Assembly: GCA_017460585.1 (NCBI GenBank)
Contig: JAFUAR010000373.1
Location: forward strand, 1-38,914
Origin: Clostridia bacterium
GTDB taxonomy: Bacteria; Bacillota; Clostridia; Christensenellales; Aristaeellaceae
DNA length: 38,914 bases
Direction of reading: 5' to 3'
Positions 6,271-38,914 of the stretch are shown in pieces (positions within the stretch are counted from its first letter, which is position 1; each line of letters begins with the position of its first letter). The position numbers and the translations under genes are program-made. The notes under the pieces are model-generated. The model had not been told where the DNA came from and made no database searches. It was given only the letters and a program-made list of their open reading frames with translations.

Positions 6271-6306
6271 TGTATAATGGATACAGTTTGATAGGAGGAA
6301 TTGGTT

Positions 6307-19108: not shown

Positions 19109-19148
19109 AGCATTGAAGGTTAATCGGCAATCATCATAGCAATGGGCG

Positions 19149-19180
19149 AAGCCGCCCCGGATACAAACGGGGCGGCTTTT
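19149..19180 (+). terminator. Terminator-like hairpin after the 1311-aa gene (possible partial terminator)
   Basis: 11-bp stem AAGCCGCCCCG (19149-19159) / CGGGGCGGCTT (19168-19178) followed by TT. Confidence 0.5.
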
Positions 19181-19201
19181 CCTGAATCGGGGGCGCATGG
19201 A

Positions 19202-20257: not shown

Positions 20258-20329
20258 GCTGCGTACGGGGTAAAGCACCCATGGCGCAACCAGAGGAACC
20301 GATGAATGGATAAGGGAAGGGAAGCTGGA

Positions 20330-23300
20330 ATGAAGAAAATCCTGAAAGCAATGCTGGTTTTGGCGCTCGCCCTCGCGCTGCTGCTGCCCGAATGGGCGCT
20401 GGCAGCGGAATCCGGCTACCTGAGCATTGCCGAAATGCATCAGGACAACGACAATAGCGGCAGGGTCTATCTGTATCTCACCTATGTGGAATACAACTGG
20501 CTGGCTCCGAGGGATAATCTCCATTCCGAGGACTTTTATACCCTGACCATGGATTCAAAGCAGATACCGGTGTACAATCCGGTGCTGTATTCCCGCACGG
20601 GCGGTCGCGTGCACTACGTACTGTGCGTGGATGTATCCAAATCCATTAAGGATACCGAACGCCCCAAGGTGAAGGAAGCGCTCACGAACTTTGTGGATAA
20701 TCTGCAAAGCAACGAGATGGTCACCATTATTACCTTCGGCGATAATGTGCAGACCGTCGCCAATGCCTTGAGCGACAAGAACCAGCTGCGCAGCCGGATC
20801 GATTCCATCGATTGGACCGGCAACACTACGCAGCTGTACGAGGGTGTGAAGACCGCCATGGACGCCGCCAGCGTGAAGCGCATGGAGGACGCTCAGGTGG
20901 GGCGCACCGCCGTAGTGCTCATTACCGACGGCGTAGACGAGACCAGCGAGACCAGCAAATATACCCCGAGCGCGGTGTTGGACGCCATTATCAATACCAA
21001 TGTGCCGGTATATGTGCTGTATTTTGACCGCAGCGGCAAGGATCAGCAGAGCATTACCGAACTGAACAGCTTTGTCAACGCTTCGGGCGGCTTGTTCAAA
21101 ATGCTGGATGCGCCCTCTCTGCAGACCATACTTAAGAATATTGGCGATCTCACGCGCAATTGCGTACAGATTTCCACCCAGCTCGTCAATGAGGGACAGG
21201 GCGCGACGCAGCCCGATTCGGGCTATCCCTTTCAGGTGACGGAGGGCAACGGCAAGAAATCCGCGGAGCATAATTTCATAGTGGACTTCCAGCGCCTGCC
21301 CGATCCTACGCCCGAACCCGATCTCGCCGTAGACGAGACCACCATCGTACCCATTACCGAGGATTTTGAAGCCATCACCGTCCGCACGGAGCCCAACTCC
21401 ACCGTAACCATTTCCCGCAAGGGGCAGACGCTCTATCAGGATACCTCCAACGGTTCGGGCGAGCTGACTTGGCATTTTGACGCGGAGACCGTGAAGCTGC
21501 GCAAGGGCGAGACCATTTCCGTAGACGTGGAGGATCCCTCCCATAACCGGCTGCCGGAGCCTGTAACCGCGGAGGTGGGCGAATCGTCGCGCGAGCAGAT
21601 TACCAAGCTGGAAATCGACGGCATGGACGGCGACAACGTAATTTACGGGTCGAACTTTACCATTACCGGCTACGCCGAGCCCGATGCACAGGTGCTTGTG
21701 AGCTGGGTGAACAACAACGCCGGCGGCGCGCTGCACGAGGATGTCATTTCCGTAAAGAGCAACGGCTACTTTGAGGCGACGCTGGATTATGGTACCTCCA
21801 ATAATCCCGATACCACCATGGCGCGTGGCTATGTGGATGTGAAGTACGCGGATTATCTCGCCTACAGCCGTTGGTCGAGCACGAGCGGGCAGATCGCTTG
21901 GTACCGTGATCCCAAGCCGGAGATTGACGACCATATCGACCGCTTTGAAGTCGATCCCATTACGGAAGATACGGATGTGCTGCGCGCGGATACGGAGGCG
22001 AACTCCACCGTATACGTAAGCTGGCAGGGCTTTGAGGATCATTCGCAGGCGAACGAACAGGGCGTATGGGAATATCCCATTCGCCGCCTCAAGCCGGATA
22101 CGCAGGTGGTGCTCTACGCGATTGATCCCGCGGGCAACCGCAGCGAAAACGTGACCAAGGTGGTCAATCCGTCTACACGCGATAAGATTACCATGAACAT
22201 CTCCGAGCTGGGAGAAGGCGGCACCGTGAATTCGGAAACGCTGACCGTGACCGGCAACGCCGAACCCGGCGAGATAGTGCGCGTTACTTGGATGTCGGAC
22301 AGCGAGCCTGTACCGCGCCCCAAGAAGTGCGAGGTGAATGAATACGGGCACTATCGCGCGGTCTTTACCAACGAGGAGTGCGCTGGCGGCGAGGGATACT
22401 TTACCGCCATTTACGACGACGGCAACGCCAGCAGCAAGCGCGCGGACGATCGGCAGGTGGTGTGGAACAACGCCCCGCCCACGCCCGTGCCCACGGAGGT
22501 ACCCGTAACTGAAGCGCCTACGCCCGTACCCAGTCCCACGCCCAGCGAAGCGCCCACGGCGACTCCCGCACCGACCATTCCGGCAACGCCGGAACCCACG
22601 CCGGAACCTACCGCCGAACCCACGCCGGAGCCCACGGCGACTCCCGCGCCATGGCCGCAGAACTGGATCATCAGTTTTACCGATTATTTCGGCGGACCGG
22701 ACGAGATGCTGGAGAATCCGCGCTTCTGGATACTCGCGGCGGCGGTGCTGCTGTTCATCGCGCTCATCGTGCTGCTGATCGTGCTGCTCGCCAAACGCGG
22801 GCGCAAGCGCACGCGTACGCCCGGTATGGACGCGGCGGAGGATATGCCCCGCAAGGATGGCGGCGCGGCAAGTCAGGCGGGCACCATCCGTCAGGGCGGC
22901 GCGCCGAGCGGACCGGATTCGGGCATGACCCTGCCCAGAAACGCCACGCCTCCCGCAGGCGGATTTGATCTGAATTCTACCATCCCCATGCAGCCTTCGA
23001 CCGGCACGGTGCGCATTGAAAAGAAACAGAATGTAATGCCGACCGGTACGGTGCGCATCCGCAAAAACGGTCCCGCGCCCATTCAGCTGGATATACTGGA
23101 AACGAGGAGCTTCGCGGGCATATCCAATGAACGCACCGCAGCGCTGGCGACGGAGCTGATCGTAGGTCGCGATCAGAGCTGCGCGTTCCCCGTACAGGAT
23201 GAGACCGTGTCGACGCGCCATTTGAAGCTGGAGCGCGATGGTTCGGCGGTGTTCGTTACCGACCTGAACTCCTCCAACGGCACCAAGCTGAACGGGACGC

Positions 23301-23386
23301 CGGTAACCGAAAAGACCCCCTTGAACAGCGGCGATACGCTGGAGATCGGTCGCACGACTCTGTTAATTCGCTTTAACGCGCAATAA
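20330..23386 (+). CDS. Single-pass membrane protein: signal peptide, extracellular vWA head, Ig-like A-B-A-B stalk, PT linker, TM and cytoplasmic FHA (1018 aa)
   Basis: MKKILKAMLVLALALALLLP signal peptide. vWA/MIDAS signatures HYVLCVDVSKSI (D-x-S-x-S), VTIITFGD and AVVLITDGVDET. TM FWILAAAVLLFIALIVLLIVLLA (about 22724-22792). FHA LIVGRDQSCAFPVQDETVSTRHLKL...LNSSNGTKLNG. Confidence 0.88.
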   Translation: MKKILKAMLVLALALALLLPEWALAAESGYLSIAEMHQDNDNSGRVYLYLTYVEYNWLAPRDNLHSEDFYTLTMDSKQIPVYNPVLYSRTGGRVHYVLCVDVSKSIKDTERPKVKEALTNFVDNLQSNEMVTIITFGDNVQTVANALSDKNQLRSRIDSIDWTGNTTQLYEGVKTAMDAASVKRMEDAQVGRTAVVLITDGVDETSETSKYTPSAVLDAIINTNVPVYVLYFDRSGKDQQSITELNSFVNASGGLFKMLDAPSLQTILKNIGDLTRNCVQISTQLVNEGQGATQPDSGYPFQVTEGNGKKSAEHNFIVDFQRLPDPTPEPDLAVDETTIVPITEDFEAITVRTEPNSTVTISRKGQTLYQDTSNGSGELTWHFDAETVKLRKGETISVDVEDPSHNRLPEPVTAEVGESSREQITKLEIDGMDGDNVIYGSNFTITGYAEPDAQVLVSWVNNNAGGALHEDVISVKSNGYFEATLDYGTSNNPDTTMARGYVDVKYADYLAYSRWSSTSGQIAWYRDPKPEIDDHIDRFEVDPITEDTDVLRADTEANSTVYVSWQGFEDHSQANEQGVWEYPIRRLKPDTQVVLYAIDPAGNRSENVTKVVNPSTRDKITMNISELGEGGTVNSETLTVTGNAEPGEIVRVTWMSDSEPVPRPKKCEVNEYGHYRAVFTNEECAGGEGYFTAIYDDGNASSKRADDRQVVWNNAPPTPVPTEVPVTEAPTPVPSPTPSEAPTATPAPTIPATPEPTPEPTAEPTPEPTATPAPWPQNWIISFTDYFGGPDEMLENPRFWILAAAVLLFIALIVLLIVLLAKRGRKRTRTPGMDAAEDMPRKDGGAASQAGTIRQGGAPSGPDSGMTLPRNATPPAGGFDLNSTIPMQPSTGTVRIEKKQNVMPTGTVRIRKNGPAPIQLDILETRSFAGISNERTAALATELIVGRDQSCAFPVQDETVSTRHLKLERDGSAVFVTDLNSSNGTKLNGTPVTEKTPLNSGDTLEIGRTTLLIRFNAQ

Positions 23387-23445
23387 GAACAATCAATCGC
23401 CCGAAAGGAGAGCATCCCTTCGGGCACAAGTGGGAGTGAGCTTTT

Positions 23446-26400
23446 ATGAAGCGTGTGTGGATATTATGTCTGGCATTGGCGCTGTTTCTGTTGAGTGCGA
23501 CCGCCTTGGCGGATACGCAGGTGACAGATCTGAGCGGGCTGTTCGGCGGCGCAGGCGCTACGGAAACGCAGACGCTGCAGGCGGACCTGAGCAAGGATCT
23601 GAGCCTTGAATTGTGGGATCTGCCATACGGCGGTCGCTGGATCATTTATTCCGATGATATCCCGCGCTTTGCAGCCAACGGCGGATTGTCCACGGAGATG
23701 AGCACCAGTCAGGAGCTGCATAAGGACAAGATCGATATCTGGGCGGACGAAATGGACGGTCTGGATGAGATCGATCTTGAAGTGAAGCTCAGCCTGAACG
23801 GATACAACAACAATACCCCCGCGATTGTGTGGAAGGGTCATATCGTCAACGACGCCATGGCGGGTCGTAAGACCATTACGCTGGAAGCGATTCGCGTAAG
23901 CAAGCAGGGCGGCGCGGAAATTGTGTTTACAGAACAGGGATTTGCCGAGGGCACGTTTGAATCGAGCGATACCGTTGTAATCGAGCTGGCGCAGGGCGTG
24001 CATTTGGATGAGAGCTCTTTGGGCGCGCCCGTAACGCAAAGTGCGGAGGGCGTGTACGAAATGCCGCTTTCCAATGTATCTTCCGGCGAATATCGCTTTC
24101 AGACGGCGGAAATGGACGCATATGGCGTAAGCTATATGGCGTTTCGCCAGCTCACCATGAGCATAGTTGGCGCTTCGCAGCCGGTAGCGGAAGCGCCAAT
24201 TGTGGAGCAGCCTGCGGAATCTCAGCAAACCGTCGTTTCCGTTTCGCCGGCAGAGGAAGCCACGATTCCGCAAGAAGCGATCGCTCCGGAGACTGACGCG
24301 GCGCAGAGCGCGGCGGATCTTTCCAGCTGGGATTTGAATGCGGGAACGCAGGGCGCTTCCGGTGCAATTTTGGTACAGATCGACCCCGTGAGCGAGGATA
24401 GCGGTGTGATTATTGTGCGCACGGAGGCGTACGCCGAGGTTACGCTCATGCAGGGCGCTGCGGAAATCGATTTGGGCATCGCGGATGGCGAAGGCGTATA
24501 TACGTATAATGTCGCTGAAAACGGGCTGAAGCTGAGCGAGGGTCAGGAGATTCGCGCCCGCGCTTCGGACGGATACGATCGAAGTGAGGAAGCGTCCACA
24601 ACCGTAGGTATGTCGGAACGCGCGTTGATTCGAGTGTCCGTAGACGGCGTGTCCGAAGGGGCGTGCTATAGTCCCGTATTGCAAATCGAGGGCAGCGCAG
24701 ATCCGGATCAAATGATTCGCGTACAGTGGTTCCCAGATGGTTTGACCGCGCCCGAACCTATAGTGGTGCAAGCGGCGGGGAACGGCAGCTTTACCGCGGA
24801 AGTGCGCTTTGACGATGCGCATCCCGCGCTTGAATCGGTGACCGGACACGTGAGCGCGGCATATGCCGACGGGCTCGCCGCCAGCCGTTCGGGCGACAGC
24901 GGTAGTTTCCTATGGGCGCGCGAAGTGCCCGTGCCGCCGGATACGGAGCTGAGCGGACTGCTCGTGCTCCCCGTGACCGAAGACAGCGCTGAAATTGTAG
25001 TGCAAACGGAAGAAAATGCGCACATCGTCATCGCGCAGGATGGTGCGACGCTCGCCGAGGGCGACGCGGATGACAATGGCGATTGGCGTTGGACGCTGCC
25101 GGATGGTTACGCGTTGCCCGCGAAGCAGACGCTTAGCGTGACGGCTACCGACGAGGCGGGCAACAGCGGCAGCGCGGAGGTCGCGGTAGGCGTATCCACC
25201 CGCGAAGCCATCGTGCTGTCCGTGCGCAACGTGGATGGCGCGCAGCATTTGCTGAACCGTGAAACCATGACCGTAGTGGGGCGTTCACAGGAAAACGAGC
25301 CCGTACGCGTGGGCTGGTATACGCCCGAGGGCGTGCTGCTGGCGGAAGAGACCGTGCAGGAAGGCGGAAACTGGAAGGTGGAGCTGGAGGGCGATCTGGA
25401 TACCGACGGAGAGGGCTATGTAGCGGCGGTATACGCCGATGGACGCGCAAAGAGCAAGAGTACGCGTTCGGAATCCTTTACATGGGATCACGCGCTGCCT
25501 ACGCCCGAACCCACCGCGGAGCCCACGCCTGAACCCACCGCGGAACCTACGCCCGAACCTACCGAAGCGCCTACGCCCGAGCCCACCATTCCGCCGGCAA
25601 CGGAAGCGCCCACCGCGGAACCCGAGCCGGAACCCACGGAGGAGCCTGCGCAGGAACCGGATATCGTGGATTTGACGAACGATTCGACGCCTTCGCCGGA
25701 TGCGCCTATTGAAGACGAAGGCTTTATTGAGGAGTGGAAAGAGCGTTTCGAGGATGAACCCATGCTTCTGGTTGGCGCGATTGCCGCTTTGCTGGCGGTA
25801 ATCGGCGGTATTGTCGCTGCAATTGTTCTTTCCGGAAAGAAGCGCAAGGCCGCAAGGCGTAAGCAGGATTTTCTGGTGCGCGCCAGCGAGGATGCGCCGC
25901 GACCGGTGAGCGAACAGTCTGTCAGCCAGACGGTGCGCCAAAATAATCCCGCGGGCGGCGTGCAGGGAACAATAATATCGCCCATAAACGGCGTGACGAA
26001 TGCTGCGCCGCAGCAGACGTTCGTGCCCCAGCCGACCGCGCCCATATCGCATATTCCCACGCCTCCCGCGGGCGGCACGGGAACCACGCGAATCGGGCAG
26101 ATCAATCTGGACCAGACCCGAGAGATTGGCGGAGGCGGCACTGTGCGCCTTGGCACGCAGGCGATTCAAATGAAGTTTGAGGAGCGCAGAGATTTTGCGG
26201 GTGTGCTCAACCACCGCACCGCGCCTTTGGTAGACGGTATGGTGCTGGGGCGCGACGCGGGTTGCGACTTTGTGATTACGGATGAGACCGTGTCGTCCAG
26301 ACACGCGCGCATTACGCGCGAAGGTCCCATGGTATTTGTGGAGGATCTGCATTCGTCCAACGGTACTACGCTGAACGGGCAGGATGTTCTCGCGAAGATG

Positions 26401-26460
26401 GAGCTGCACTCCGGCGACGTGCTGGAGGTTGGCAGAACCGTGTTGAAGGTTCAGTTTTAG
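23446..26460 (+). CDS. Single-pass membrane protein: signal peptide, unknown head, Ig-like A-B-A-B stalk, PT linker, TM and cytoplasmic FHA (1004 aa)
   Basis: MKRVWILCLALALFLLSATALA signal peptide. TM LLVGAIAALLAVIGGIVAAIVLSG (about 25762-25836). FHA MVLGRDAGCDFVITDETVSSRHARI...LHSSNGTTLNG. The C-terminal ~650 aa are colinear with the 20330..23386 product. Confidence 0.88.
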   Translation: MKRVWILCLALALFLLSATALADTQVTDLSGLFGGAGATETQTLQADLSKDLSLELWDLPYGGRWIIYSDDIPRFAANGGLSTEMSTSQELHKDKIDIWADEMDGLDEIDLEVKLSLNGYNNNTPAIVWKGHIVNDAMAGRKTITLEAIRVSKQGGAEIVFTEQGFAEGTFESSDTVVIELAQGVHLDESSLGAPVTQSAEGVYEMPLSNVSSGEYRFQTAEMDAYGVSYMAFRQLTMSIVGASQPVAEAPIVEQPAESQQTVVSVSPAEEATIPQEAIAPETDAAQSAADLSSWDLNAGTQGASGAILVQIDPVSEDSGVIIVRTEAYAEVTLMQGAAEIDLGIADGEGVYTYNVAENGLKLSEGQEIRARASDGYDRSEEASTTVGMSERALIRVSVDGVSEGACYSPVLQIEGSADPDQMIRVQWFPDGLTAPEPIVVQAAGNGSFTAEVRFDDAHPALESVTGHVSAAYADGLAASRSGDSGSFLWAREVPVPPDTELSGLLVLPVTEDSAEIVVQTEENAHIVIAQDGATLAEGDADDNGDWRWTLPDGYALPAKQTLSVTATDEAGNSGSAEVAVGVSTREAIVLSVRNVDGAQHLLNRETMTVVGRSQENEPVRVGWYTPEGVLLAEETVQEGGNWKVELEGDLDTDGEGYVAAVYADGRAKSKSTRSESFTWDHALPTPEPTAEPTPEPTAEPTPEPTEAPTPEPTIPPATEAPTAEPEPEPTEEPAQEPDIVDLTNDSTPSPDAPIEDEGFIEEWKERFEDEPMLLVGAIAALLAVIGGIVAAIVLSGKKRKAARRKQDFLVRASEDAPRPVSEQSVSQTVRQNNPAGGVQGTIISPINGVTNAAPQQTFVPQPTAPISHIPTPPAGGTGTTRIGQINLDQTREIGGGGTVRLGTQAIQMKFEERRDFAGVLNHRTAPLVDGMVLGRDAGCDFVITDETVSSRHARITREGPMVFVEDLHSSNGTTLNGQDVLAKMELHSGDVLEVGRTVLKVQF
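25498..25593 (+). repeat. Four tandem 24-nt repeats encoding (PTPEPTAE)n in the juxtamembrane linker
   Basis: Units at 25498-25521, 25522-25545, 25546-25569 and 25570-25593: cctacgcccgaacccaccgcggag and three close variants. Confidence 0.85.
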
Positions 26461-26540
26461 CGTTTGATCGAAGCATGGAAAGCCGGGGTGGCATCGCTCC
26501 GGCTTTCTATGGAAAATGTACATCGATGGGGGAAACGGGT

Positions 26541-29500
26541 ATGAGGTATGGGCTGAAAGGTTTAGGAATTTTGCTGCTTGCGGTACTGCTGGTTTGCGCG
26601 CCCGCGCTGGGCGAGGAAGCTGCACCGACAAGTGTTCCACTTGCGTCGGTTATAGGCAATATCGAAGCACCAGTACCCGTGAAGCCCCATTATGCCCTCT
26701 ATGATTGGAGCGCCGTGTGCGAATTGTCGGAAGAGCTCTCGCAGGATGCTCCGATTGAATGTGATTTCTCGCAGGATATCCGTTTTGTATTCAACGATAT
26801 ACCGAAAGAATTTGGTATTGAGATAGAAATAGACGGACAGCAGAGGGAACAACTCGAAAGCAGAGAATACACGCTTGCCGTTGGATCTATTCCAACGGAC
26901 AATGTGGTTGTGGCTGTATATCTCGCTGCCTCTGAATGGAGTGAGCCCAAGCCGATTTGGAGGGGCACGCTGCAGAGCGGCGGCGAGATAAAGGATATTC
27001 ATCTGTATTTGCTCTATACCCTGCAGAATGATACCGTACTGGAGGAGAAGGAACCGGTTATAGATGGAAGAATTCCCGTTTCCGCTGAAGCGGAACAGGA
27101 ATCGGTAGAGTTATCCGTGTGGTTGGCAAAAGGGTTGCAACTAGAAGGACCTTTGGCGATCAACTCAGGAAGCGATGGGAACTATACCGTTGTTTGGAAT
27201 AAGAATAATCTGTTCTTTTCACTGTATTCCAACGAGGGCTATGGCGATCAAGACCGCAAATGGGTAGAGCACCGTTACGCATTGGTTGAAGATGGTGAGG
27301 ACAAAATCAGTTCTGAATCCACGATTGCTCCTTCGGATGAATTCACGGATGAACCCAGTGCCTCTCCCGAGCCGCAGGATACGAGCGCGATTGTAGATAC
27401 GGCGTCTCCTTCCCCCGCGCCTACGCCCATACCCGTAGCATTGGAAATTTACTTAAAGGGAAAAGAGAATGCAATTCAGCTGATGCCCTCAATGGATCAG
27501 CGAGTGATCAGCGGAATATATGCGTTGGAGATTCGTACCTCGAGCGATATTGACTGGACACAGGTAAATGTATTGGTTTCAGGCGTTCCGGCAACCATTG
27601 AAGAGATCGACGGCAGCAGAATCGTCGAATTGACTGTGGAACACCATTCCGCAACGGAAATCCAAGTGTTTTATCAAGCCAAACCTCAGGGAACCTATAG
27701 TTTAAAAGGCTATCAGCCAATCCGCATTACGAATAAGGAAGAGGTTACAGAAGAATATCGTCAGGGAAGCAAAAGCGCAGATATTTCGTTTACTATAGAC
27801 GATGGCTATTTGAACGGAAATAAAGATGTCGATATCCGCATTGAAGAGGGATTGGAGGGCGATTTTCTGGTTCCCAAAACCCTCGATAATATGACGCTTA
27901 TTGATTCTGGAAATTATAGCTATACACTGAATATTCCGGAAAGAGTAGAGGGAATCTATACTTTTTCGATTCGATATGTCGCTTCGAGGGAGTACGTCGA
28001 GCCGCGAGAGCAGCTTGAAGGAATTGAGGACGCATCTTCCATTCATCTTACGGTCGATACGAAGGCACCACAGTGCATTGGCGTTCAAATCAACGATACG
28101 GAGATTGATAAATTAAATGAAGCCCTCAAAGCGGAAGTATATGCCAATACGAAACAGGCGGAGGTATCCGTAACCTTCGATGAGTCGGTGGAATTGTATG
28201 TGAACGGCGAAAAGCAGGCGGGTGAAGCCAAAGCGAAGTGGAATATTTCCGTTGATATTCCGCAGGATGGCGCGCCGGTACGAATTTCGGCAAAGGACGG
28301 TTTTGGCAATGAGACCAAAGCGCCTGTGGAAATTGGATTTGATATTATAGACCCAATTGGAAATGTGACGCTAATGGATCAATCGTCCGGAGAGACGCTA
28401 GGCGGCGAATTGCTGGAAGGGAAAAAGGATATTTCGCTCCATATAGAGGGGTCGAAGGGGCATACGCCGGAGGGCAGCTACCATTTTGACGACGAACCGG
28501 AAGAAACCATTAAGCCCGTAAGATCGTCCATAGGCGAGGGGTGGGATGTCTTCATTCCGCTCGAGGGTGTAAGCAATGCGTGTAAGACCCTCACCCTCAC
28601 GCTCGCGGGGGAGGATACGCCCTATAAGTGGATTATCGATTTGGAACCGCCCGAGGCGCAGGTTCAGTCGATTACCGCCGAAGAAGGCGGCAAATCGACT
28701 TACAGTGCGCAGAAGAACGCGCTCACTTGGTTGAGCGGTGAAGCGCTTAGCGTTACGCTGGACAATCCCAAGGGCGATGTTGAGCGCGTCGAGCTGAACA
28801 ATGCGCCGATCTGGGTTCGGGAACAAGGAGGCATTGAGAAGGAATCCTCTTCCCAAATTGAGTTTACCCTAGATGCCGAGCGCGTAAATGGAGCGGAATC
28901 CATTGTCTTTGATCTGTTCGATGAATACAATAATTCCAGCAACACAAAGCCCATCTCTGTACGGGCTTTTGTGCCCGCTCCCATTGAGATTGCCTTGGAA
29001 GAAGACGAACAACAGGTCGCGTTTGGCGGGACAAAGGCTCTCGAACTGAATGGTAGTGCCGAATCCGGTTGGGCGCTGATTGCAAAGCTGGGCGAAGCAG
29101 AGGGAATCTCTATTGCGGTGGATGAAAATGGCGAATGGACGCAGACATTTGAACCGGAGCAGTATCCCGAAAGCGAGACGACGCTGACGCTCTCCTATGA
29201 AAACGGACTGGGAGAGACAAAAGACATTGACGTAACAATTGATCAAACGTGCGAGATTGACTTCCCCGAATCCGTGACCGAAGGGGACGACTTTATCGAA
29301 TTAGAGGCGCTGGAGGACGGCGTTACGGTCATCGTGAAGCTGAATTCTGAAGTTGTATCGCGCTTTGCCGAAGGGGAAGCGGGGGAGGTTCTGCTCACTG
29401 CGGAAGGAAAGAACAAAGTCGAGATCACCCAAAGCGCGAAATTGGGCGATGAATATCTCATCCAAGCGATCGACCAATATGGCAATGAGAAGACGACCGA

Positions 29501-30605
29501 CGAACCCATTCGCGTAGTCGCTAAAGAAGGAGACATTAAGGACTTTGCATTGACTGCCAACGGCAATTCCATAGTAAGCGGAGCGTTCATTCAGTACGAT
29601 GGCGGTCCCATCGCCTTTACGGGCACTCCCAATCCGGAAGGAAGGCTAACCGTGGAAGTGACGAAGGACGGTGCGCAGATCGAAGTATCGGAGCAAACCG
29701 GCGCGTTTGCGCTGGAAAACGCCGAAGACGGCGAATATAGCGTAATGGCGAGGCTCGCGGACTACCAGAATATCCACTCGGAGCCGATCATATTCACCAT
29801 AGACAACACCAAGCCCGTCGTTCAATGCGCCTCCGATATTTCCGACCTCGCGGCGCAGCTCGAGCTTTCCGCCGATGAAGACAGTAAATTCAAAGTGGAA
29901 ATTGATGGAGCGCTCGCGTATGAGAGCGAAGACTTCGAAAACGGAGCGATCGTATCGATCGATTGGGAGAAAGACGTACTTTGGCAGGCGAAGGAGATCG
30001 CCATTATTGCAATGGATCGCGCGGGCAATATTTCCGAAACGAAGAAAGTCGCAATTACGCCCACGGACGCGTACAGAGTATGGCTCGATACCGCGCCGGA
30101 ACGCGTGGAGCAGGGGCAGATGATTACCGTAACGGGTACGCTAGCCTACCGAGGCGCGGATCGACCGACGGTGCAGGCGCAGCTGCTCTCCGCGGAGGAT
30201 AAACCGCTTCGGGACAGCAAGGGCGGCGAGCTTCAACCTGTAGAAGTAGAGTGGGGCGAGGAAGCGCCGGTTAACGAGGCGTCTATTGAAGGAATGCGCG
30301 CCGACCATTTGCAGAAGTTTTCCGCCGCGTTCCGCGCGGAGGACTATCCGAGGGGCGAAGCGAAGGTGCGATTGATCGTGAAAGAGGCGCAGGAGCTCAC
30401 CGATCGGAGCGTGCAAATCGATCTGAACAGCGGAAAGCGCACGCGTTATATCGCCATAATCGCCGCGCTGGGCGTTGCGCTGATCGTAGTGCTGATCGCT
30501 TTGGCAATCGTCAGCAAAAAGATTTCCGCGCTCAAGGACGCGGAGATCGATCGCCGCAGCCGCGCGAGTAACCTGACCATCCGACAGAAGGGCGGTCGCC
30601 CGTAA
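26541..30605 (+). CDS. Large surface protein with signal peptide, repeat-rich ectodomain, C-terminal TM and a 27-aa cytoplasmic tail (1354 aa)
   Basis: Start trimmed to MRYGLKGLGILLLAVLLVCAPALGEE (GGGGGA RBS). TM YIAIIAALGVALIVVLIALAIV, then tail SKKISALKDAEIDRRSRASNLTIRQKGGRP. Visibly lower GC than neighbouring genes. Confidence 0.8.
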   Translation: MRYGLKGLGILLLAVLLVCAPALGEEAAPTSVPLASVIGNIEAPVPVKPHYALYDWSAVCELSEELSQDAPIECDFSQDIRFVFNDIPKEFGIEIEIDGQQREQLESREYTLAVGSIPTDNVVVAVYLAASEWSEPKPIWRGTLQSGGEIKDIHLYLLYTLQNDTVLEEKEPVIDGRIPVSAEAEQESVELSVWLAKGLQLEGPLAINSGSDGNYTVVWNKNNLFFSLYSNEGYGDQDRKWVEHRYALVEDGEDKISSESTIAPSDEFTDEPSASPEPQDTSAIVDTASPSPAPTPIPVALEIYLKGKENAIQLMPSMDQRVISGIYALEIRTSSDIDWTQVNVLVSGVPATIEEIDGSRIVELTVEHHSATEIQVFYQAKPQGTYSLKGYQPIRITNKEEVTEEYRQGSKSADISFTIDDGYLNGNKDVDIRIEEGLEGDFLVPKTLDNMTLIDSGNYSYTLNIPERVEGIYTFSIRYVASREYVEPREQLEGIEDASSIHLTVDTKAPQCIGVQINDTEIDKLNEALKAEVYANTKQAEVSVTFDESVELYVNGEKQAGEAKAKWNISVDIPQDGAPVRISAKDGFGNETKAPVEIGFDIIDPIGNVTLMDQSSGETLGGELLEGKKDISLHIEGSKGHTPEGSYHFDDEPEETIKPVRSSIGEGWDVFIPLEGVSNACKTLTLTLAGEDTPYKWIIDLEPPEAQVQSITAEEGGKSTYSAQKNALTWLSGEALSVTLDNPKGDVERVELNNAPIWVREQGGIEKESSSQIEFTLDAERVNGAESIVFDLFDEYNNSSNTKPISVRAFVPAPIEIALEEDEQQVAFGGTKALELNGSAESGWALIAKLGEAEGISIAVDENGEWTQTFEPEQYPESETTLTLSYENGLGETKDIDVTIDQTCEIDFPESVTEGDDFIELEALEDGVTVIVKLNSEVVSRFAEGEAGEVLLTAEGKNKVEITQSAKLGDEYLIQAIDQYGNEKTTDEPIRVVAKEGDIKDFALTANGNSIVSGAFIQYDGGPIAFTGTPNPEGRLTVEVTKDGAQIEVSEQTGAFALENAEDGEYSVMARLADYQNIHSEPIIFTIDNTKPVVQCASDISDLAAQLELSADEDSKFKVEIDGALAYESEDFENGAIVSIDWEKDVLWQAKEIAIIAMDRAGNISETKKVAITPTDAYRVWLDTAPERVEQGQMITVTGTLAYRGADRPTVQAQLLSAEDKPLRDSKGGELQPVEVEWGEEAPVNEASIEGMRADHLQKFSAAFRAEDYPRGEAKVRLIVKEAQELTDRSVQIDLNSGKRTRYIAIIAALGVALIVVLIALAIVSKKISALKDAEIDRRSRASNLTIRQKGGRP

Positions 30606-30626
30606 ACCGCGCAGAGGGGGAGCATT

Positions 30627-31580
30627 ATGGGTCTGAAAATAGATACCGCCGTATACAGCCATATCGGGCGGCGCAAGAATAACGAGGATAATTTCTTTTT
30701 GGACGGGCTCTATATGGAGCGCGACCAAATGAACAAGGGCGGTCAATACCACGCCGTGAAGAAGGGCGACGAGCAGATCTACGCCGTTTGCGACGGTATG
30801 GGCGGCGCGGAGTTCGGCGAGGAGGCCTCTTTGCGCGCGGTGCAGCGCCTGAAGGAATACAAAGAAAAGTGCCGTCAGCCGGACAACACGGGCAATCTCA
30901 ACCAAATGATTGACGAGGCGTCCCGCTGGATTGACGATATTTCTCTCGCCAAGGGTATGGAGTCCGGCTCGTCCGGCTCTACCATCGCCATGCTCATTAT
31001 GAAGGATTGGTATTTCCGCACGGTGAACGTGGGCGATAGCCGCGTATATCGCCTGCGCGGGGGCTTGCTGGAGCGCATGACCAAGGATGATTCCGAGGTA
31101 CAGCAAATGGTGGATCGCGGCGAGATTACTTTGGATCAGGCTTGGCAGCATCCGCGCAAGAACGTGATCACCCGCCACTTGGGTATGCCCATGGAAGGGG
31201 AGGCGTTGATGCCTTCGGTATCCATGCGCTTGGATTTGAACCAAGGCGACCGCTTTCTGATCTGTTCGGATGGTTTGAGCGATTCGCTGCACGATTCTGT
31301 CATTCGCAGAATTCTTACCGAACAGCATACCCCGCAGGCAACCGCGGCGCAGCTGGTGCGCACGGCGCTTTCGGAAGCGGACAACATGGGCGTGGCATCG
31401 GATAATATTACCGTAATTGTACTGGATGTGCTGGAGGCGGGCGGACAGGATGCGGATGTGAAGCGCATTCGCAAGCTTTCCGCGGCGCGCGCGGGTTTGG
31501 CGGCGGCGAGCGTGCTGCTGGCGGGCGGAATCGGGTACGAGGTATTCCAGCTCATTCAATTTCTGAATAGTTCCTATTGA
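30627..31580 (+). CDS. PP2C (PPM) Ser/Thr phosphatase with C-terminal membrane anchor (317 aa)
   Basis: Motifs GRRKNNEDNF, AVCDGMGGAEFGEEAS, GSTIAM, VNVGDSRVY, ICSDGL and DNITVIVLDV. C-terminal hydrophobic segment GLAAASVLLAGGIGYEVFQLIQFL. GGGGGAG RBS present. Confidence 0.9.
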   Translation: MGLKIDTAVYSHIGRRKNNEDNFFLDGLYMERDQMNKGGQYHAVKKGDEQIYAVCDGMGGAEFGEEASLRAVQRLKEYKEKCRQPDNTGNLNQMIDEASRWIDDISLAKGMESGSSGSTIAMLIMKDWYFRTVNVGDSRVYRLRGGLLERMTKDDSEVQQMVDRGEITLDQAWQHPRKNVITRHLGMPMEGEALMPSVSMRLDLNQGDRFLICSDGLSDSLHDSVIRRILTEQHTPQATAAQLVRTALSEADNMGVASDNITVIVLDVLEAGGQDADVKRIRKLSAARAGLAAASVLLAGGIGYEVFQLIQFLNSSY

Positions 31581-31609
31581 TATAGATGGTTGTGGCATAA
31601 GGAGCAGGC

Positions 31610-34600
31610 ATGGAGAACTTGGAACAGCGCATACGGCAATACGAACCCTTCTTCGGCAGGTGGAAGCTGAACGATCCGCCGGAGATCCTTGGGCGCGGCA
31701 ATTCCGGCGTGGTCTATCGGGTGCACGACCCGGAAAACGCGGCGGACGCGGCGCTCAAGGTCATACCCATACCGAGGGATGAGGGTGTGCTCGAGCAATG
31801 GCGGCGGGAATGCGGCGGTAACGAGAGCATGGTGCGCGCCATGATCGATCAGGAATATCGCTATGCGCAAACTGAGATCGATATTATGCACCGTTTGAAG
31901 AGCGACAGCAATATCGTATGCTTTGAGGATGCGAAAATCTATAAGCGCTCCGATACCTACGGTTACGATGTGGTCATCCGCATGGAGCGGTTGATTCGCT
32001 TGGACAGCTTTTTTCAGAATCCGGGCAAATACGGCTATGGTCACAATATGGAGACCTACCTGATTATCTGGATGCACTTAACCCGCGGTTTGGCGTTCTG
32101 CGAGCGCAGCGGCATTGTCCATTTGGATATCAAGCCGGACAATATATTCTATGCCGAACCCTCCCGAGACGCGTTCAAGGTGGGCGATTTCGGCGTGTCC
32201 ATTCGCAGCGATAACGGCAAGTCTGTGGGCGTGGGCATGGTGGTCGGCACGCGCGATTATATGGCTCCCGAAGTGTATCGCGGCGAGGGCGGCGATATTC
32301 GTTCGGATATTTACAGCCTCGGCGTGGTGATGTACAGCCTGTTCAACGGCGATCGTTTGCCCTTTTTGCCCGCGCACGGTCGAGTGAGCGAGGAGGACAA
32401 CAACGTAGCGCGAGATCAGCGGCTTTCCGGAAAGGAGGTACCGCCCATTAAGGGAATGGATCCGCTGCTTTCGGAAATATTGCTCAAGTGCCTGCGCTAT
32501 CGCCCGCAGGATCGCTACCAGAGCATGGAGACCCTGAACAACGATATTACCCGTTACTACTATATGTGGCTGGATGAGGGCGGCAAGCGCGGCGGCGCGG
32601 GCGGTTCCTCGCGGACGCTTCCCATCGTAATCGGCACGGCGGCGGTCGGTCTGGTGAGCATCATCGCGTTCATACTGTGGCAGATGCTGCATTCCGGATC
32701 GGGTTCTGTAGAGCAGGAGCAGCCTACCGCAACGCCGATGGATGAAAACACCGCGCGGCCCACGGAATTGCTTCCGGAGCCCACCGCGCAGGAGGAAACG
32801 AGCGCGCCGACCGCTTTGCTCGAATCCACCGATACGCCCGAACTCACCGAAGCGCCCACTCCCGCGCCTACGCTCATGCTGAACCCAGATTTTGTCAGCG
32901 CGGGCGAACAAGGCGTGGTGGTGATGAACGCCGACAATCGAAACGATCCCATCACGCTGTACGGCGCGGCGGGCAGCTCGCTAATGGGCGCGTGGATGTT
33001 CGAAGGGCAGCTGGTCAAATCCGAATTTGTTGAATTCGATGAGAGAGGCGAGGCGACCATTACCGTGCCGTATTCGCAGGACGGCGAATATACGCTGCGC
33101 TGCGGCTATGACGGCGCGAACGCCTCGGAATATGAAACGTTCACCTTCCGGATCGATACCGTAGCGCCGGAACTCACCTTCCTGCACGTACCCTACGCGG
33201 AGGTGGGCAACCAGACGCTTGAGGTGCAAACCGATCCCTATGCCCGCGTGCGCGTGTTCGATGAGGCGGGCAATCCCATTGTGGAAACAACCGATGCCGA
33301 CGAGTACGGCAGGGCAAACATATCCATTGTCGAGCCGTTGGAAAGCGACGCGACCTATTTCGTGCGCGCGCAGGATAGCGCGGGCAATGCCAGCGCTTCG
33401 TTCAGCGCATCCATACCGCCGGTTATGCTGTCGCTCGCGCATCCGGTCTCCATGGGCGATACTGAAATTGAGATTCTGACCGACGCGCATAATGACATTA
33501 CCGTGACCAACGGCGAGCAGTATATGGTGACCCCGATCGGCGACGACGATGGCGACGGCGCGGTACTGTGGAGCTTGGACGCGCCCGCGGGGTTTGGCGA
33601 TACGTACTACATCAGCGCCATTACGCCCGATGGACGCGTGCATATGATCTCGGCACAGGTGGAGACGTGGCGAAGGATCGAGCTGGAGGAGATTAACCGA
33701 GCCGAGGCGGAGCACAGCCGCAGCATACAGGTTAACGGCGTTGCGCAGCCCAATCAGGAGGTCGTGCTCACGTGGAAGGGTACTGCGGTGGAAGCCGCCC
33801 GCAGGCGCGCGGACGGCGAAGGTGCGTTTTCCATTGAGCTGAATCCCGAGGATTGCGGCGTAGACCCGTCTGGCGATGTTGGCGCCATCGGCGCGGTGTA
33901 CGCCGGCGCGGAGGGCGAAGCGGCGACTGCGGCGGAGCCCATTGAGGACGTTCAGTGGAGCCCTGAGGCGAACGCTTCCATCCCCGCCGCCGTGGGTGAA
34001 GGCGATTTGGAGTTGCGAATTATCGCGCCGGAAGCTGAGCGTGTAACGGTAAACGGTTCCGAGGCGGGCTTGGAGCACGAGGAAGGCTCGAGCGAGTATT
34101 ACTACCGGCCGGAGGGCGGCGCGTTCGATCCGGATGTGGAATATGTGGTTTCCGTGCGCGATGCGGCGGGTTACGAAAAGACGCAGTCCGTCGTGGTGGA
34201 TATGCTGGAGCGCGTACCCATTCAGATGGCATTGGGGCAAGGCTATTTATCGGAAGGGAAACGGTTTATCGGCGAAAAAATGACCGTTCGCGCCGAGGCG
34301 TCGCCCGGGCGGGAAATTGAAATAGCGTGGATTGATCACAAAGATGACTCCATTCTGCTATGGACCGGCGAGGCGGACGAAAATGGCAATATCAGGGCGC
34401 AAATCGACGCGGGCATTGTATTTGGGAATAGCGGAGATAACGTATACCTGAAATCGGGCACGATTCGCGTAGCGTATGCGGGCAGTGTAGCGCAGGATAA
34501 CGCGGCGAAGCTCAGTATTCGCTGGTATCTGCGACCTGTATTAACCATTCGCCCCAATACGGTTACCGAAACGACTGAACAGTTAATCGTCAGCGCAAAT

Positions 34601-37600
34601 ACTGGCGCGACGGTATCCGCGTATATCAACGGAACACTCGTGGTCAATGACGATGCGCTGGACGCCTACGATACGGCGAAGATTTTGCTCGAAGAGATAA
34701 AAGCAGGCGACGAAATCGTTGTGCGCGTCGAACTGGTAGACGACGAAGGCAACGTGCTGTCGCGTGAATCTGAGCCCATGGTGGTTCAGGAGGTCGAACG
34801 GCAGCCCATTACGCTTCAAACGGATGAGGAGGCGCGCGGCGACCAATTGCGCGGTACGTTCTCGGCGGAGCCCGGTTGCGCTGTGGCGCTCTATTGGAAC
34901 GGCGAATGGATTTCTTCATTTGAAGCGGAAGAAGGCGATACGCGTTTCTTCGTTATGGAGGAAGAGATTGGCGATTTCGTTGAAACCGAGGGTTGGCTAT
35001 CCGCGCGTTACGCGGACGGCAAGGCGGAGAGCGCAGCGTCGGAAGGCACATATGTGCACTGGATTTCGCGTACGGAGCTGGAGCTGCTGACCGACGATGT
35101 GACCGAGGATGATTCTACCATTATCGTTCATACGGGAAAGGATGCGCACGTCAACGTCGTGATTGGCAATACCGATCTTGGCGAGCGCGAAGCGGACGAC
35201 TCCGGCAATTTCGTGTGGAATTTAGAGGAGCTTGGCGTACGTTTGCGCGTAGGAGATCGAATTGAATACACCGCGTATGATGATTACGGCAATTCCGCAA
35301 CCATTACCGACACAGTGCAGGCATCCTCGCGCGAAGAAATTCGAGCAACCATTAAAAACCTGCAGGGCGGCATGATCGTGGGCGGAGCGGCGAAGCTGAG
35401 CGGCAGCGCAAGCCCCAATTATGAGCTGCAGGCGTATTGGAACGATATGCCGGTGGGCGGAATCATTCGAACCGATTCGCAGGGCGATTTCAGCGCGGTG
35501 CTGTCGGAAAACGAAATTCAGGGCGGTGGCACGCTCTATCTGAGGTATGCGGATGGTCTGGGCAACAGCCGTCAGTTCAGCGTGCCGATTACCGGTTTGG
35601 TGGGCGAGCTGGAGGAAGCGCGGCTGGAAGAGCCGATTTATGAGGACGCCGAGCAACTCGCGGTGCATACCGCCTCGGGCGCGCAGGTGGATTTCTATCT
35701 GAACGGCAGACTGATGGGCAGCGCAACCGCCAATGGCGACGGCGTTGCGGTTTACGATTTGGCGGGACAGGCGCTGAGCGCGGACGACCGAATCTATGCC
35801 ATCGCCTCAGATGGATACACGAAGAAACGCGGCGATCAGGTGCTGGTGCAGCCCGAGGAGCGTATGCCCATCGATATTACGGTGCGCGCTGTGTCTTCAG
35901 AGGGGCGCGTGTACGATGAAAGTATGCTGGTAATCGTATGGGCGCAAATGAATAAGGGCATTGAGGTGCTGTGGAACGACGTTCCGATCGAGTGGACGCA
36001 GACCAGCGTGTACAATGAGAACAACGTCGCCATACGCATCGATATGCCGCAGAATTTCGAACAGGGCTGGGGCACGCTGACCGTGCGCTACGCGGACGGC
36101 AAGGGCGAAGCGGCAGTGCAGGACGTGGATTGGAGACTCAATGTAGAGCTTCCCGTATCCATCGATACACTGAGCGAGGATAGCGCTACGCTGACCGTGC
36201 ATGGTCCCGTAGGCGCGGTTGTGCGGCTGGAGGATGCGAACGGCGCATTTGTTGCCGATGGTTTGCTTCGCGCCTTGGATTCGACCGGCGAAGGAATGTG
36301 GAAGTATCCGACCGCGCAGGGCTTTACGGAGGGCGAAGTCTATCGCGCCATCGTGACCGATGGAGAGGGCAACGAAGGCAGCGCCACCGCGCGCGTGGAA
36401 GCCTCGCAGCTGGCGTTTATTGAGGCGCGGGTCGGCGGAGGCGATTTCCTGCTGCCTATCGAGATCAACGCCGAGCCGAACAGCGAAGTTGTGTTGCGGG
36501 TCAATGGCGCGGTGAACGCGGTGGCGAGCATTGGCGGCGACGGCAGCGCAAATATAGCCCTTGCGCCGAACGGAGCAATGGTGAACCATACGCAAACGGT
36601 CTCCATTTCTGTGGAGTATGCCGACAATGTGGCGCGCAGCCGCGCGACCGAGGTTGTTCAGGAATGGACGCCTTTGCTCACCGTGCGCCTGAGCAGCGAG
36701 GAAATTCCTGCTGAGAAGCACCAGATTGAGGTATTTGCGCCCGTTGTAGACGGCGTTGCGGTGTTTGGAGAGCTGGGCGGAGAGGTGCGCCAAGCGAGTT
36801 ATTCGCGCGGAAACGGCGCCTATCTGCTCGATTTGGGCGATGAGGTCTCCGCGGGCGAAACCGTGACCATTTGGGCGGAATACGACGGCGCTGAAAGCGA
36901 ACGCGTGGAAGCGCACATTGCCCGCAGAAGCATTGCCGCGATTATTACCGGCAAAGAGCTGAACACGCCGACGGTCGAATTGATGGGATACGCACAGCGC
37001 AATTCTTCCATTCAGGTCGCGGCGCAATTTGAGGGCGTCGCTCCGGAAGAAACCGCCGTATACGTGCAGTTGGAAAATAGCGATACCTTCCAAACGAGTC
37101 TTGATTTGGCGTTTGTACCCTTGAGAAGCGGCGATTATCCGTTTACGCTGGTCGCGCGGTACGAGGGCGAGAGCGAATGGCTGGAGGTGGGCAGCGCGAG
37201 CTATGTGCTGCACGCCGACCTTCCAGAGGAACCTGTTTTACTCACCGCGCCGATTACAGCGGACGATGCGGGCGTGGTCTACGCGGTGTCGGATGATGTG
37301 CGCTACGCGAGGCTTTTCCTCAATGGAGTGCCAGAGAGTTCGATCGAGCTGACGGAAGGGACGACTACCGCGCAGTTCGATGTGGAGCTGCGCGAGGGCG
37401 ATGAGATTGAAGTGCTGCTGTATAATGAAGCAGGATGGTATATCGTGAGCGAGCCTGTATGGGTCGGCGCGGCGGCAACGCCCGCGCCCACAGATACGCC
37501 GATTCTCACACCGGAACCTACGGCAATACCCACGCTAGAACCCACAGCGGTACCTACGCCGATTCCCACGGCGGTACCTACGCCGATTCCTACGGCAGTA

Positions 37601-38683: not shown

Positions 38684-38690
38684 ACAATCT

Positions 38691-38727
38691 AAAAAAATGG
38701 GGCTGGAGGTTCAAATTGACCTCCAGC
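38691..38727. terminator. Intrinsic terminator; canonical on the minus strand, and it also ends the plus-strand kinase operon
   Basis: 9-bp stem GCTGGAGGT (38702-38710) / ACCTCCAGC (38719-38727). On the minus strand the hairpin is followed by CCCATTTTTTT (A-run 38691-38697 on plus). The plus strand has no U-tract. Confidence 0.65.
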
Positions 38728-38734
38728 ATTACTA

Positions 38735-38914
38735 TTCACCCATGGGGGTGTCGGGGGTCGCAATCCCCGACTTTCAATCCGCAGCGGCGGCGTGTACGCC
38801 GCGAGGACGCGGACCAAGTGTCCGCTTCCTTGCAGGTTTTGCGCCCGAAAACCGTGCAGCGGTTTTAGCAAAACCTGAGGGGGTGGCAGTGGCGGGGGAC
38901 GTGTCCCCCGTCCA
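38735..38914 (+). other. GC-rich non-coding segment with a dense series of nested hairpins; unassigned structured RNA or repeat element, truncated by the window edge
   Basis: Hairpins are GTCGGGG-N8-CCCCGAC, GCGGCG-TGTA-CGCCGC and GCGAGGACGCGGAC-CAAGT-GTCCGCTTCCTTGC. A fourth is CAGGTTTTGC...[AAAACCG-TGCAG-CGGTTTT]...GCAAAACCTG, and a fifth is CGGGGGA-CGTG-TCCCCCG. No credible ORF overlaps the region. Confidence 0.25.

Follow-up and report, generated by a model that had tools for sequence, protein, structure and literature searches.

A kinase and two FHA receptors of a Clostridia type VII secretion locus share an alternating pair of immunoglobulin-like modules in their extracellular stalks

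We analysed a 38,914-nucleotide (nt) stretch of DNA, here called the window, from an uncultured gut Clostridia bacterium (contig JAFUAR010000373.1 of assembly GCA_017460585.1). An operon on its + strand encodes a Hanks-type Ser/Thr kinase and two single-pass receptors with cytoplasmic FHA domains (FHA1 and FHA2), and the extracellular stalks of all three proteins contain the same repeat, in which two modules, A and B, alternate. Both modules are immunoglobulin (Ig)-like domains of Big_6 type, two subtypes of a single fold that take turns along the repeat. On balance we think it probable that the A-B stalk is a modular, length-adjustable spacer in a transmembrane module for threonine phosphorylation that is linked to a type VII secretion system (T7SS), rather than a docking surface.

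An earlier note, made by reading the sequence, had proposed that a two-module repeat is common to the kinase and both receptors. All 12 peptides that it quoted are present at the places given for them in the three open reading frames (ORFs), and when we delimited units with iterative hidden Markov models (HMMs) a common A-B unit was recovered across the three proteins (Table 1). The pair occurs twice in each receptor, at 21341–22450 in FHA1 and 24376–25470 in FHA2, against proposed spans of 21347–22440 and 24384–25465. For the kinase, about eight pairs had been claimed within 33178–37470; instead, we find an unpaired leading A, six pairs, the last of which has a B without its N-terminal strand, and a marginal seventh B at amino acids (aa) 1761–1859 (8.2 bits), the remainder of this range being other Ig-like sequence. 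The kinase stalk is indeed far the longer, as had been suggested, with at least 13 recognisable A/B domains plus the further Ig-like sequence, compared with four domains in each receptor. The sharing is wider than the three proteins first named: a fourth, the 1376-aa TsxI-like protein encoded between FHA2 and the phosphatase gene, lies within the range given for the repeat and carries modules in the order B-A-A (aa 834–920, 930–1012 and 1119–1193).

The common unit was tested by searching each class of protein with profiles made from another. HMMs built from the kinase alone recovered all eight receptor units (14–39 bits), and HMMs built from the receptors alone recovered all five kinase B units but only four kinase A units (9–45 bits), while the maximum among 400 shuffled proteins was 6 bits. 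Independent profiles, built from 41 A and 28 B units of other loci and containing no window sequence, had shuffle maxima of 5.6 and 7.5 bits and recovered the A-B-A-B order at 42–64 bits in FHA1 and at 46–63 bits in FHA2. Because both the cross-protein and the window-free profiles exceed the shuffled controls, we conclude that the A-B unit is real, and that the kinase and both FHA receptors have homologous extracellular stalks, as had been proposed. Unit-to-unit identity is 11–36%, and DNA tandem repeats in 20000–38914 are confined to the Pro/Thr linkers, where they have a 12/24-nt period. Recent duplication or gene conversion between the proteins was rejected in view of this low identity and the absence of any DNA repeat outside these linkers; the A-B repeats are old. 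The length of the Pro/Thr linkers themselves is likely to vary through slippage.

Module A is 70–83 aa long and module B 87–105 aa. Alignment of nine pairs shows the (S)xRxxI start and YADG-type end that the earlier note had described for B. Five of its columns never vary: V79 and R84 fall where A joins B, and W122, G163 and Y169 lie within B. The passage from A to B is tight, conserved and probably rigid, and the connectors from B to the next A vary (11–22 residues). Together these features suggest a string of rigid didomains.

The Big_6 profile (PF17936; gathering score 27.6 bits) matches all three proteins above threshold (56.6, 47.3 and 52.9 bits). Six of 13 isolated A units match it, with a best E-value of 9.5e-10, as do five of ten isolated B units (best 4.5e-5), although the one score shown for B, 16.6 bits, is under the gathering score; in FHA1 the best Big_6 stretch is the second B (aa 640–711). 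Against PDB entry 7dm0, the C region of Bap, the A-B profile gives an E-value of 1.5e-17 through its A half, and the B profile alone gives 2.6e-9, covering only the central ~50 residues. The A and B profiles align weakly to each other (hhalign probability 47%). NCBIfam Ig_like_BLP2 matches at 1e-12 across the second A-B pair of FHA2, and there are weak matches to a Ca2+-stabilised adhesin repeat and to Blp2. An AlphaFold2 (AF2) model of the first pair of FHA1, made from the nine-pair alignment, is all-beta with two domains (predicted local distance difference test (pLDDT) 91.4, predicted template modelling score (pTM) 0.82), and its best PDB match in Foldseek is 7dm0, which comprises two tandem Bap C-repeats, followed by generic tandem Ig/FnIII rods. 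Module A is thus a canonical Big_6 Ig-like domain of Bap C-repeat type. Module B we read as a divergent Big_6-like relative rather than a clean member; it has gained a strand at its N-terminus (SxRxxI) and ends in a YADG strand. The alternation seen by the earlier note stands, and the two modules are related to each other. The likeness to the Bap C region (7dm0, 6m3a) and to Acinetobacter Blp2 lies in the tandem extracellular Big_6 arrays, with A aligning end to end. In contrast to those proteins, two diverged subtypes here alternate strictly, B has its added N-terminal strand and YADG end, and the arrays are short (2–6 pairs) and belong to single-pass signalling proteins rather than wall-anchored adhesins.

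Topology was derived from hydrophobic segments and flanking basic residues. FHA1 consists of a signal peptide, a vWA head (aa 105–276) with a DxSxS MIDAS metal-binding motif, the A-B-A-B stalk, a Pro/Thr linker, a transmembrane (TM) segment at about aa 807, a cytoplasmic linker and an FHA domain (aa 952–1015). FHA2 follows the same order, with a head at aa ~25–300, TM at about aa 773 and FHA at aa 933–996. No domain could be assigned to the FHA2 head, and a BLASTP comparison found no homology between it and the N-terminal part of the TsxI-like protein (E 0.57). The FHA domains score 63.2 (FHA1) and 67.5 bits (FHA2) against a cut-off of 20.7 and keep the predicted phosphothreonine-binding GR/SxxH/NG residues (VGRD...VSTRH...SSNGT in FHA1, LGRD...VSSRH...SSNGT in FHA2). 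The kinase has a cytoplasmic kinase domain (aa 25–311), a TM segment at about aa 339 and an ectodomain of ~2000 aa. Its Pkinase match (112.6 bits, cut-off 31.7) and its motifs GRGNSGVV, AALKVI, HLDIKPDN, GDFG and MAPE, all intact in the translation, are those of a Hanks-type kinase of non-RD (HLD) form that is predicted to be active. Its C-terminal head shares motifs such as LLTGW and AGF..W...L.DG.Y with related kinases; it has no Pfam match, and the AF2 model of it is poor (pLDDT 51). The receptors and the TsxI-like protein are of type I, with the head distal and B adjacent to the membrane, whereas the kinase is of type II, with A proximal and its C-terminal head distal after a Pro/Thr linker. 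As a result the chain, followed from A to B, approaches the membrane in the receptors but recedes from it in the kinase. The distal heads also differ, being a vWA domain in FHA1, the unassigned domain in FHA2 and the kinase-specific C-terminal head.

The cytoplasmic linkers between TM and FHA carry repeated (G)T[VIT]R[ILMQ] motifs, two or three copies each; there are three T[VI]R motifs in FHA1 and three T[VT]R motifs in FHA2. The TsxI-like protein has a short cytoplasmic tail whose terminal residues are LTIRQ. The linker motif is present also in receptors of the related loci that we designate L160, L161, L162, L164 and L001, and in nine receptor linkers taken together there are 20 T[VIT]R motifs, compared with 1.24 ± 1.1 after shuffling and a maximum of 6 in 2000 shuffles. 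FHA domains commonly prefer a hydrophobic residue at the third position after the phosphothreonine. This preference and the enrichment of the motif make its threonines candidate sites for the kinase, which the locus's five FHA domains, EssC's among them, would read.

Relatives of the stalk were sought with the A-B profile in an exhaustive search, which matched 4062 representative proteins, mostly giant Big_6 adhesins aligning to the A half only. Among the best 150 of these 4062, 13 proteins from outside the window have a best-scoring stretch that spans the complete unit, reaching at least about position 165: six are kinases of ~2000 aa and seven are vWA-(A-B)n proteins, all but one of the latter complete through TM and FHA. 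In one LPXTG-type adhesin (P0102) the match extends to position 154 and misses the YADG end. A word-index protein search with full-length FHA2 returned only FHA2 itself, probably because the Pro/Thr linker dominated the search; the same method returned only short fragments (50–63% identity) for the kinase domain and nothing for the B-module alignment.

Sharing of the stalk by kinase and receptor recurs in two related loci. L161 encodes an RCC1 protein, a vWA-(A-B)3-TM-FHA receptor, a TsxI-like protein with B/A modules, a PP2C phosphatase, a kinase with about six pairs and then a toxin with WXG100 and lipase domains; L162 encodes a receptor with two pairs, a TsxI-like protein, PP2C, the kinase, a small FHA protein and EssC. 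In L160 and L164 an MBG_2 protein is followed by a receptor with five and three pairs, respectively. Overall, there are 2, 3 or 5 pairs per receptor and about 5 to 8 per kinase. The closest genome that we found is a Clostridia metagenome-assembled genome from goat jejunum (L001), whose kinase is 58% identical and has ~7–8 pairs and whose receptor shows only weak A matches. Kinase domains are 50–64% identical across the loci that keep the A-B arrangement, and a small clade of Clostridia has retained the shared stalk. In gut Lachnospiraceae and Oscillospiraceae, kinases of a wider clade (~35% identity) are common; among the 159 loci listed for this clade, PP2C is nearby in 73, EssC in 26 and any A/B module in 4. 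Of the ~35% relatives listed from a metagenome scan with the kinase-domain alignment, two had an A/B module.

Two sister loci outside this pattern, L165 and L166, have the gene order FHA receptor, TsxI-like protein, PP2C, giant kinase, second kinase and then YukD/WXG100 or EssC/LytTR, preceded in L165 by an MBG_2 protein; a YukD-like gene is present in L165. Their kinases and TsxI-like proteins have A/B modules, but the FHA receptor has no more than a vWA-like head carried by a long Pro/Thr linker. In L088, neither the 877-aa kinase nor the 603-aa vWA-TM-FHA receptor yielded an A-B module. Since the receptors of L165, L166 and L088 are without detectable A-B, matching stalks are dispensable.

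The history of the units was followed through their identities. Kinase and receptor units are 22–23% identical when they come from the same locus and 23.5–23.8% identical when they come from different loci; the same-locus figure is no higher, so there is no sign of co-variation between kinase and receptor. Receptor units of different loci are ~27% identical to one another, and this pattern indicates that the kinase and receptor arrays were already separate in the common ancestor of the loci. Within the window, the first and second B of FHA1 pair with the first and second B of FHA2, which indicates that the receptors are paralogues descended from an A-B-A-B ancestor. Identity within a protein reaches 76%, in the five-pair receptor of L160, where pairs are ~202–211 aa apart, a pattern indicative of arrays whose length changes when entire A-B pairs are duplicated in tandem.

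How might such a stalk be used? If it is a spacer, strings of A-B didomains would make up rod-shaped stalks outside the cell in four single-pass membrane proteins that one operon encodes, and would hold sensing heads at or beyond the surface of the cell wall. A surface cue would then lead the kinase to phosphorylate threonines of (G)T[VI]R[ILM] motifs in the juxtamembrane linkers of the receptors, and possibly to modify the TsxI-like protein too, at its LTIRQ tail. FHA domains of the receptors, the small FHA protein and EssC would bind the phosphothreonines, this binding would gate assembly or activity of the secretion system, and PP2C would reset signalling. The operon shared with PP2C, and the recurrence of stalk sharing in L161 and L162, make a partnership of kinase and substrate plausible.

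The earlier note had instead suggested that the stalks co-assemble laterally or recognise the same ligand, and neither part of this suggestion is supported. Lateral co-assembly would have the A-B stalks of the kinase, receptors and TsxI-like protein bind side by side outside the membrane, holding the kinase by its substrates or forming a trans-wall bundle or conduit for the T7SS. The presence of A-B in three or four co-encoded membrane proteins, kept jointly in L161 and L162, would fit such an assembly, as would the near restriction of the complete unit to these protein types among the top database matches, and TsdI/TseI, the described counterparts of the TsxI-like protein, have been proposed to span the envelope like EsaA (PMC11217815). 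However, kinase and receptor units from one locus resemble each other no more than those from different loci. Moreover, the L165/L166 receptors have only a Pro/Thr linker, neither receptor nor kinase of L088 has detectable A-B, the third FHA receptor of the window lacks it, the polarity of the chain relative to the membrane is opposite in kinase and receptors, and the stalks are very unequal in length. We therefore consider lateral co-assembly unlikely; it is the missing same-locus excess and the Pro/Thr linkers of sister receptors that lead us to favour a spacer over it. That the arrays are themselves a sensing or adhesive surface for a common ligand (a wall polymer, another cell or Ca2+), giving kinase and receptors one cue, seems to us quite improbable. 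Their nearest solved relative is indeed the Bap C region, the weak matches to a Ca2+-stabilised adhesin repeat and Blp2 point the same way, and the surface-independent YADG signature of B is strongly conserved. Yet the few conserved positions lie at the A-B junction and in predicted strands of B (W122 in strand 117–124, G163 and Y169 in the last strand), and the strand map of the model suggests for them a structural role rather than ligand contact. The remaining sequence has the low identity typical of spacers, copy number varies freely, and the distinct distal heads (a vWA domain with intact MIDAS, the unassigned domain and the kinase head) are more obvious ligand sites.

Sharing of the stalk might also have no functional meaning, since Big_6 domains are common in Gram-positive surface proteins and old domain shuffling among neighbouring genes could have spread them. 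The thousands of profile matches, mostly to giant adhesins, and the ancient, diverged units with no concerted evolution agree with this; but the complete A-B unit, with a B of SxRxxI/YADG type in strict alternation with A, is nearly restricted, among the top matches, to these kinases and vWA-FHA receptors, and the arrangement has been kept across loci whose kinase domains have diverged to 50–64% identity. We judge the absence of any coupling rather improbable. Several points weigh against the spacer reading too. Bap-type Big_6 arrays are themselves adhesive or aggregative, and the stalk may not be passive. With at least 13 A/B domains, the kinase stalk seems to go far beyond what crossing the wall would require, a length that a pure spacer leaves unexplained. 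A shared partner could still account for the conserved presence of A-B in three or four of the clade's proteins. Finally, the organism is known solely through metagenome assemblies, and the nearest genome is the one with 58% kinase identity.

Table 1. Features of the window. Positions are nt of the 38,914-nt stretch; aa positions refer to the encoded protein.
Feature	Position (nt)	Strand	Details
WXG100-like genes, six	1197–4043		
EspC/LXG-like protein	4006–5832		608 aa
DUF4176	6301–6606		
LytTR regulator	7422–8168	-	
EssC-type T7SS ATPase, N-terminal FHA	8202–13100	-	1632 aa; FtsK_SpoIIIE 1.5e-55, FHA 4.6e-10
Small FHA protein, TsxJ-like	13151–13732	-	
Third single-pass FHA receptor	13782–15035	-	417 aa; weak PG_binding_1/2-like ectodomain repeats, Pro-rich linker
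Large secreted MBG_2 (YGX-type) domain protein	15077–19108	+	1343 aa; first operon gene
Membrane-anchored RCC1 beta-propeller protein	19142–20257	+	371 aa; TM ~aa 41
FHA receptor 1 (FHA1)	20306–23386	+	1026 aa; Pfam FHA 3.2e-17, VWA 1.6e-14, Big_6 3e-15
FHA1 stalk, A-B-A-B	21341–22450	+	A 21341–21571 (aa 346–422), B 21578–21883 (425–526), A 21947–22162 (548–619), B 22166–22450 (621–715)
FHA1 T[VI]R motif region	22880–23060		aa ~860–918
FHA receptor 2 (FHA2)	23446–26460	+	1004 aa; Pfam FHA 1.4e-18, Big_6 2.6e-12
FHA2 stalk, A-B-A-B	24376–25470	+	A 24376–24606 (aa 311–387), B 24607–24900 (388–485), A 24961–25188 (506–581), B 25189–25470 (582–675)
FHA2 T[VT]R motif region	25925–26150		aa ~829–902
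TsxI-like envelope protein	26475–30605	+	1376 aa; N-terminal signal/anchor, many Ig-like domains, C-terminal TM ~aa 1325
TsxI-like protein modules, B-A-A			B 28971–29234, A 29262–29510, A 29826–30053
LTIRQ tail of TsxI-like protein	30576–30590		
PP2C/PPM Ser/Thr phosphatase	30627–31580	+	317 aa; Pfam PP2C_2 3.8e-13
Hanks-type Ser/Thr kinase	31610–38683	+	2357 aa; Pfam Pkinase 2.8e-32, Big_6 4.4e-14
Kinase, unpaired leading A	33200–33409	+	aa 531–600; 39.5 bits with independent profile
Kinase, six A-B pairs	33434–36658	+	aa 609–1683; 14–53 bits against shuffle maximum 7.5
Kinase pairs 1–3 (A/B)	33434–33661/33659–33937; 33983–34198/34199–34513; 34550–34774/34787–35047	+	A aa 609–684, 792–863, 981–1055; B aa 684–776, 864–968, 1060–1146
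Kinase pairs 4–6 (A/B)	35087–35317/35318–35584; 35624–35848/35849–36127; 36158–36397/36410–36658	+	A aa 1160–1236, 1339–1413, 1517–1596; B aa 1237–1325, 1414–1506, ~1601–1683
Further beta-rich Ig-like kinase ectodomain, not assignable to A-B	36659–37489	+	marginal B; weak Big_15 match aa 1893–1950
Distal C-terminal kinase head	37700–38683	+	after Pro/Thr linker; conserved in alignment of related kinases
Pro/Thr linker DNA tandem repeats	22586–22636, 25497–25587, 37517–37711		

The operon comprises, in order, the genes for the MBG_2 protein, the membrane-anchored RCC1 propeller, FHA1, FHA2, the 1376-aa TsxI-like protein, PP2C and the kinase; FHA1, FHA2, the TsxI-like protein and the kinase are four long + strand ORFs with gaps of 15–60 nt, PP2C preceding the kinase. 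The phosphatase matches an NCBIfam family of Stp1/IreP type at 5.8e-48, under the cut-off of that family. Much of this order is found in related loci: the TsxI-like gene sits between FHA receptor and PP2C in L001, L090, L161, L162, L165 and L166, and relatives of the first two operon genes are at the corresponding position in L160, L161, L164 and L165, with MBG_2 relatives upstream of the FHA receptor in L160, L164 and L165 and the RCC1 position kept in L161 and L088. A second, short membrane kinase (361–516 aa) lies beside the giant-stalk kinase in L001 (10001–19752), L165 (16715–17803) and L166 (16211–17296); the window has a single kinase. Downstream of the kinase in L161 (17743–19116) is a 457-aa phospholipase/lipase protein with a C-terminal WXG100-like domain, which resembles the ‘reverse’ T7SS lipase toxins mentioned in PMC11217815.

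The earlier note did not mention the type VII secretion setting of the cluster. The window holds a Bacillota-type T7SS locus: EssC scores 964 bits with NCBIfam TIGR03928 (T7_EssCb_Firm), above the cut-off of 778, and WXG100 genes are present, the WXG100 gathering score being exceeded by ORFs 1197–1661, 1698–2024 and 3382–3708 and reached or nearly reached by ORFs 2056–2346, 2871–3164 and 3753–4043. The canonical T7SSb components EsaA, EssA, EssB and EsaB/YukD had no Pfam match among the scanned window ORFs, some small ORFs being outside the scan. The third FHA receptor, encoded on the - strand, has no A-B stalk, and its short linker is without a T[VI]R motif.

Among described systems the closest in content are the T7SSd/e/j loci (Garrett et al., 2024; PMC11217815), which encode a membrane kinase (TsxD), a PPM phosphatase (TsxF), FHA proteins (including TsxJ), an EssC with FHA (TsxC) and a large Ig-like envelope protein (TsxI). 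The window shares with them an FHA-bearing EssC, multiple WXG100 proteins, a membrane Ser/Thr kinase, a PPM phosphatase and a small FHA protein, and the architecture of its 1376-aa protein (signal peptide, Ig-like domains and C-terminal TM) is that described for TsdI/TseI (PMC11217815). By its parts list, compared with the published description, the locus is T7SSd/e/j-like, with threonine-phosphorylation control. No ubiquitin-like TsxB was detected in the window. It differs from the described loci in that kinase ectodomains there are helical or TPR, whereas here there is a ~2000-aa Ig-like stalk, and in its single-pass vWA-stalk-TM-FHA receptors, which are not described in that work (PMC11217815).

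A second comparison is with the Esr pathway of epibiont sensing, reported to be confined to Actinomycetes (Wang et al., bioRxiv 2026; PMC13622651), where a surface filament of Ig-like type, a vWA protein and kinases together bring about phosphorylation of an Esx-linked FHA protein on threonine. A complete Esr set comprises EsrA (an Ig-like filament with WD40 propeller), a vWA protein, a MoxR ATPase, the transglutaminase EsrD, a kinase, a phosphatase and the FHA output, and Esr often adjoins or is fused to a T7SS ATPase (PMC13622651). Common to Esr and the window are Ig-like repeats with a beta-propeller, vWA, a Ser/Thr kinase, a phosphatase and an FHA protein with threonines in a disordered linker (PMC13622651), and the RCC1-type propeller protein may be a counterpart of the beta-propeller of the Esr sensor filament. 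In Esr, however, these are separate soluble or surface proteins, whereas here vWA, stalk, TM and FHA are fused and the kinase carries a filament of its own; the propeller is RCC1-type and on a separate small protein; and the locus belongs to Clostridia rather than Actinomycetes. Neither a MoxR ATPase nor a transglutaminase was found among the scanned window ORFs. The locus is thus an analogue of Esr, not a member.

In the H1 type VI secretion system (T6SS) of Pseudomonas aeruginosa, PpkA (with a periplasmic vWA), PppA and Fha1 form a threonine phosphorylation pathway. There too a secretion machine is under post-translational control by a Hanks kinase of the membrane, together with a PP2C phosphatase, an FHA protein and an outward-facing vWA domain. 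The differences are that the secretion system is another one, the envelope is Gram-negative, vWA is on the kinase and not on the FHA protein, and there is no Ig-like stalk. These two analogies permit a more specific but doubtful proposal, that the window holds a Clostridial counterpart of Esr threat sensing combined with a switch of the T6SS kind, the filament, vWA sensor and FHA output having been fused into single-pass receptors. Contact with a competitor, phage or epibiont might then lead to phosphorylation of T[VI]R threonines and to FHA-dependent activation of the T7SS. The kinase would in that case have its own, longer A-B filament, and the unequal A-B stalks would raise the different sensing heads to unlike distances from the wall.

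Several parts of this picture are already known: Big_6 arrays, Ig-like TsxI proteins, and genes for kinases, phosphatases and FHA proteins linked to a T7SS. A search of the literature on Big_6 and stalks found nothing relevant. Four features appear to be undescribed in the literature that we compared: the strict A-B alternation with its recognisable B subtype; the incorporation of A-B into both the ~2000-aa ectodomain of a kinase and single-pass receptors of vWA-stalk-TM-FHA type; the conservation of A-B as a signature of one Clostridia clade; and the T[VI]R motif.

Stalk sharing is by itself a modest finding, and the wiring from receptor and kinase to the T7SS is the more valuable lead. Newly catalogued T7SS variants of Bacillota carry kinases, phosphatases and FHA proteins; the present locus and its relatives suggest an outside-to-inside wiring for such parts, with a head, an Ig-like stalk, a single TM helix and a repeated Thr motif beside FHA, and with a giant-stalk kinase and PP2C encoded in the receptors’ own operon. 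They thereby offer testable candidates for the sensor, the phosphorylation sites and the readers in gut Clostridia. The A-B didomain can serve as a signature for finding such systems, and the range of receptors, with 2, 3 or 5 pairs and with Pro/Thr linkers in sister clades, amounts to a natural experiment in stalk length. If the proposed wiring is correct, a threat sensor coupled to a T7SS, so far shown only in Actinomycetes, would extend to another phylum.

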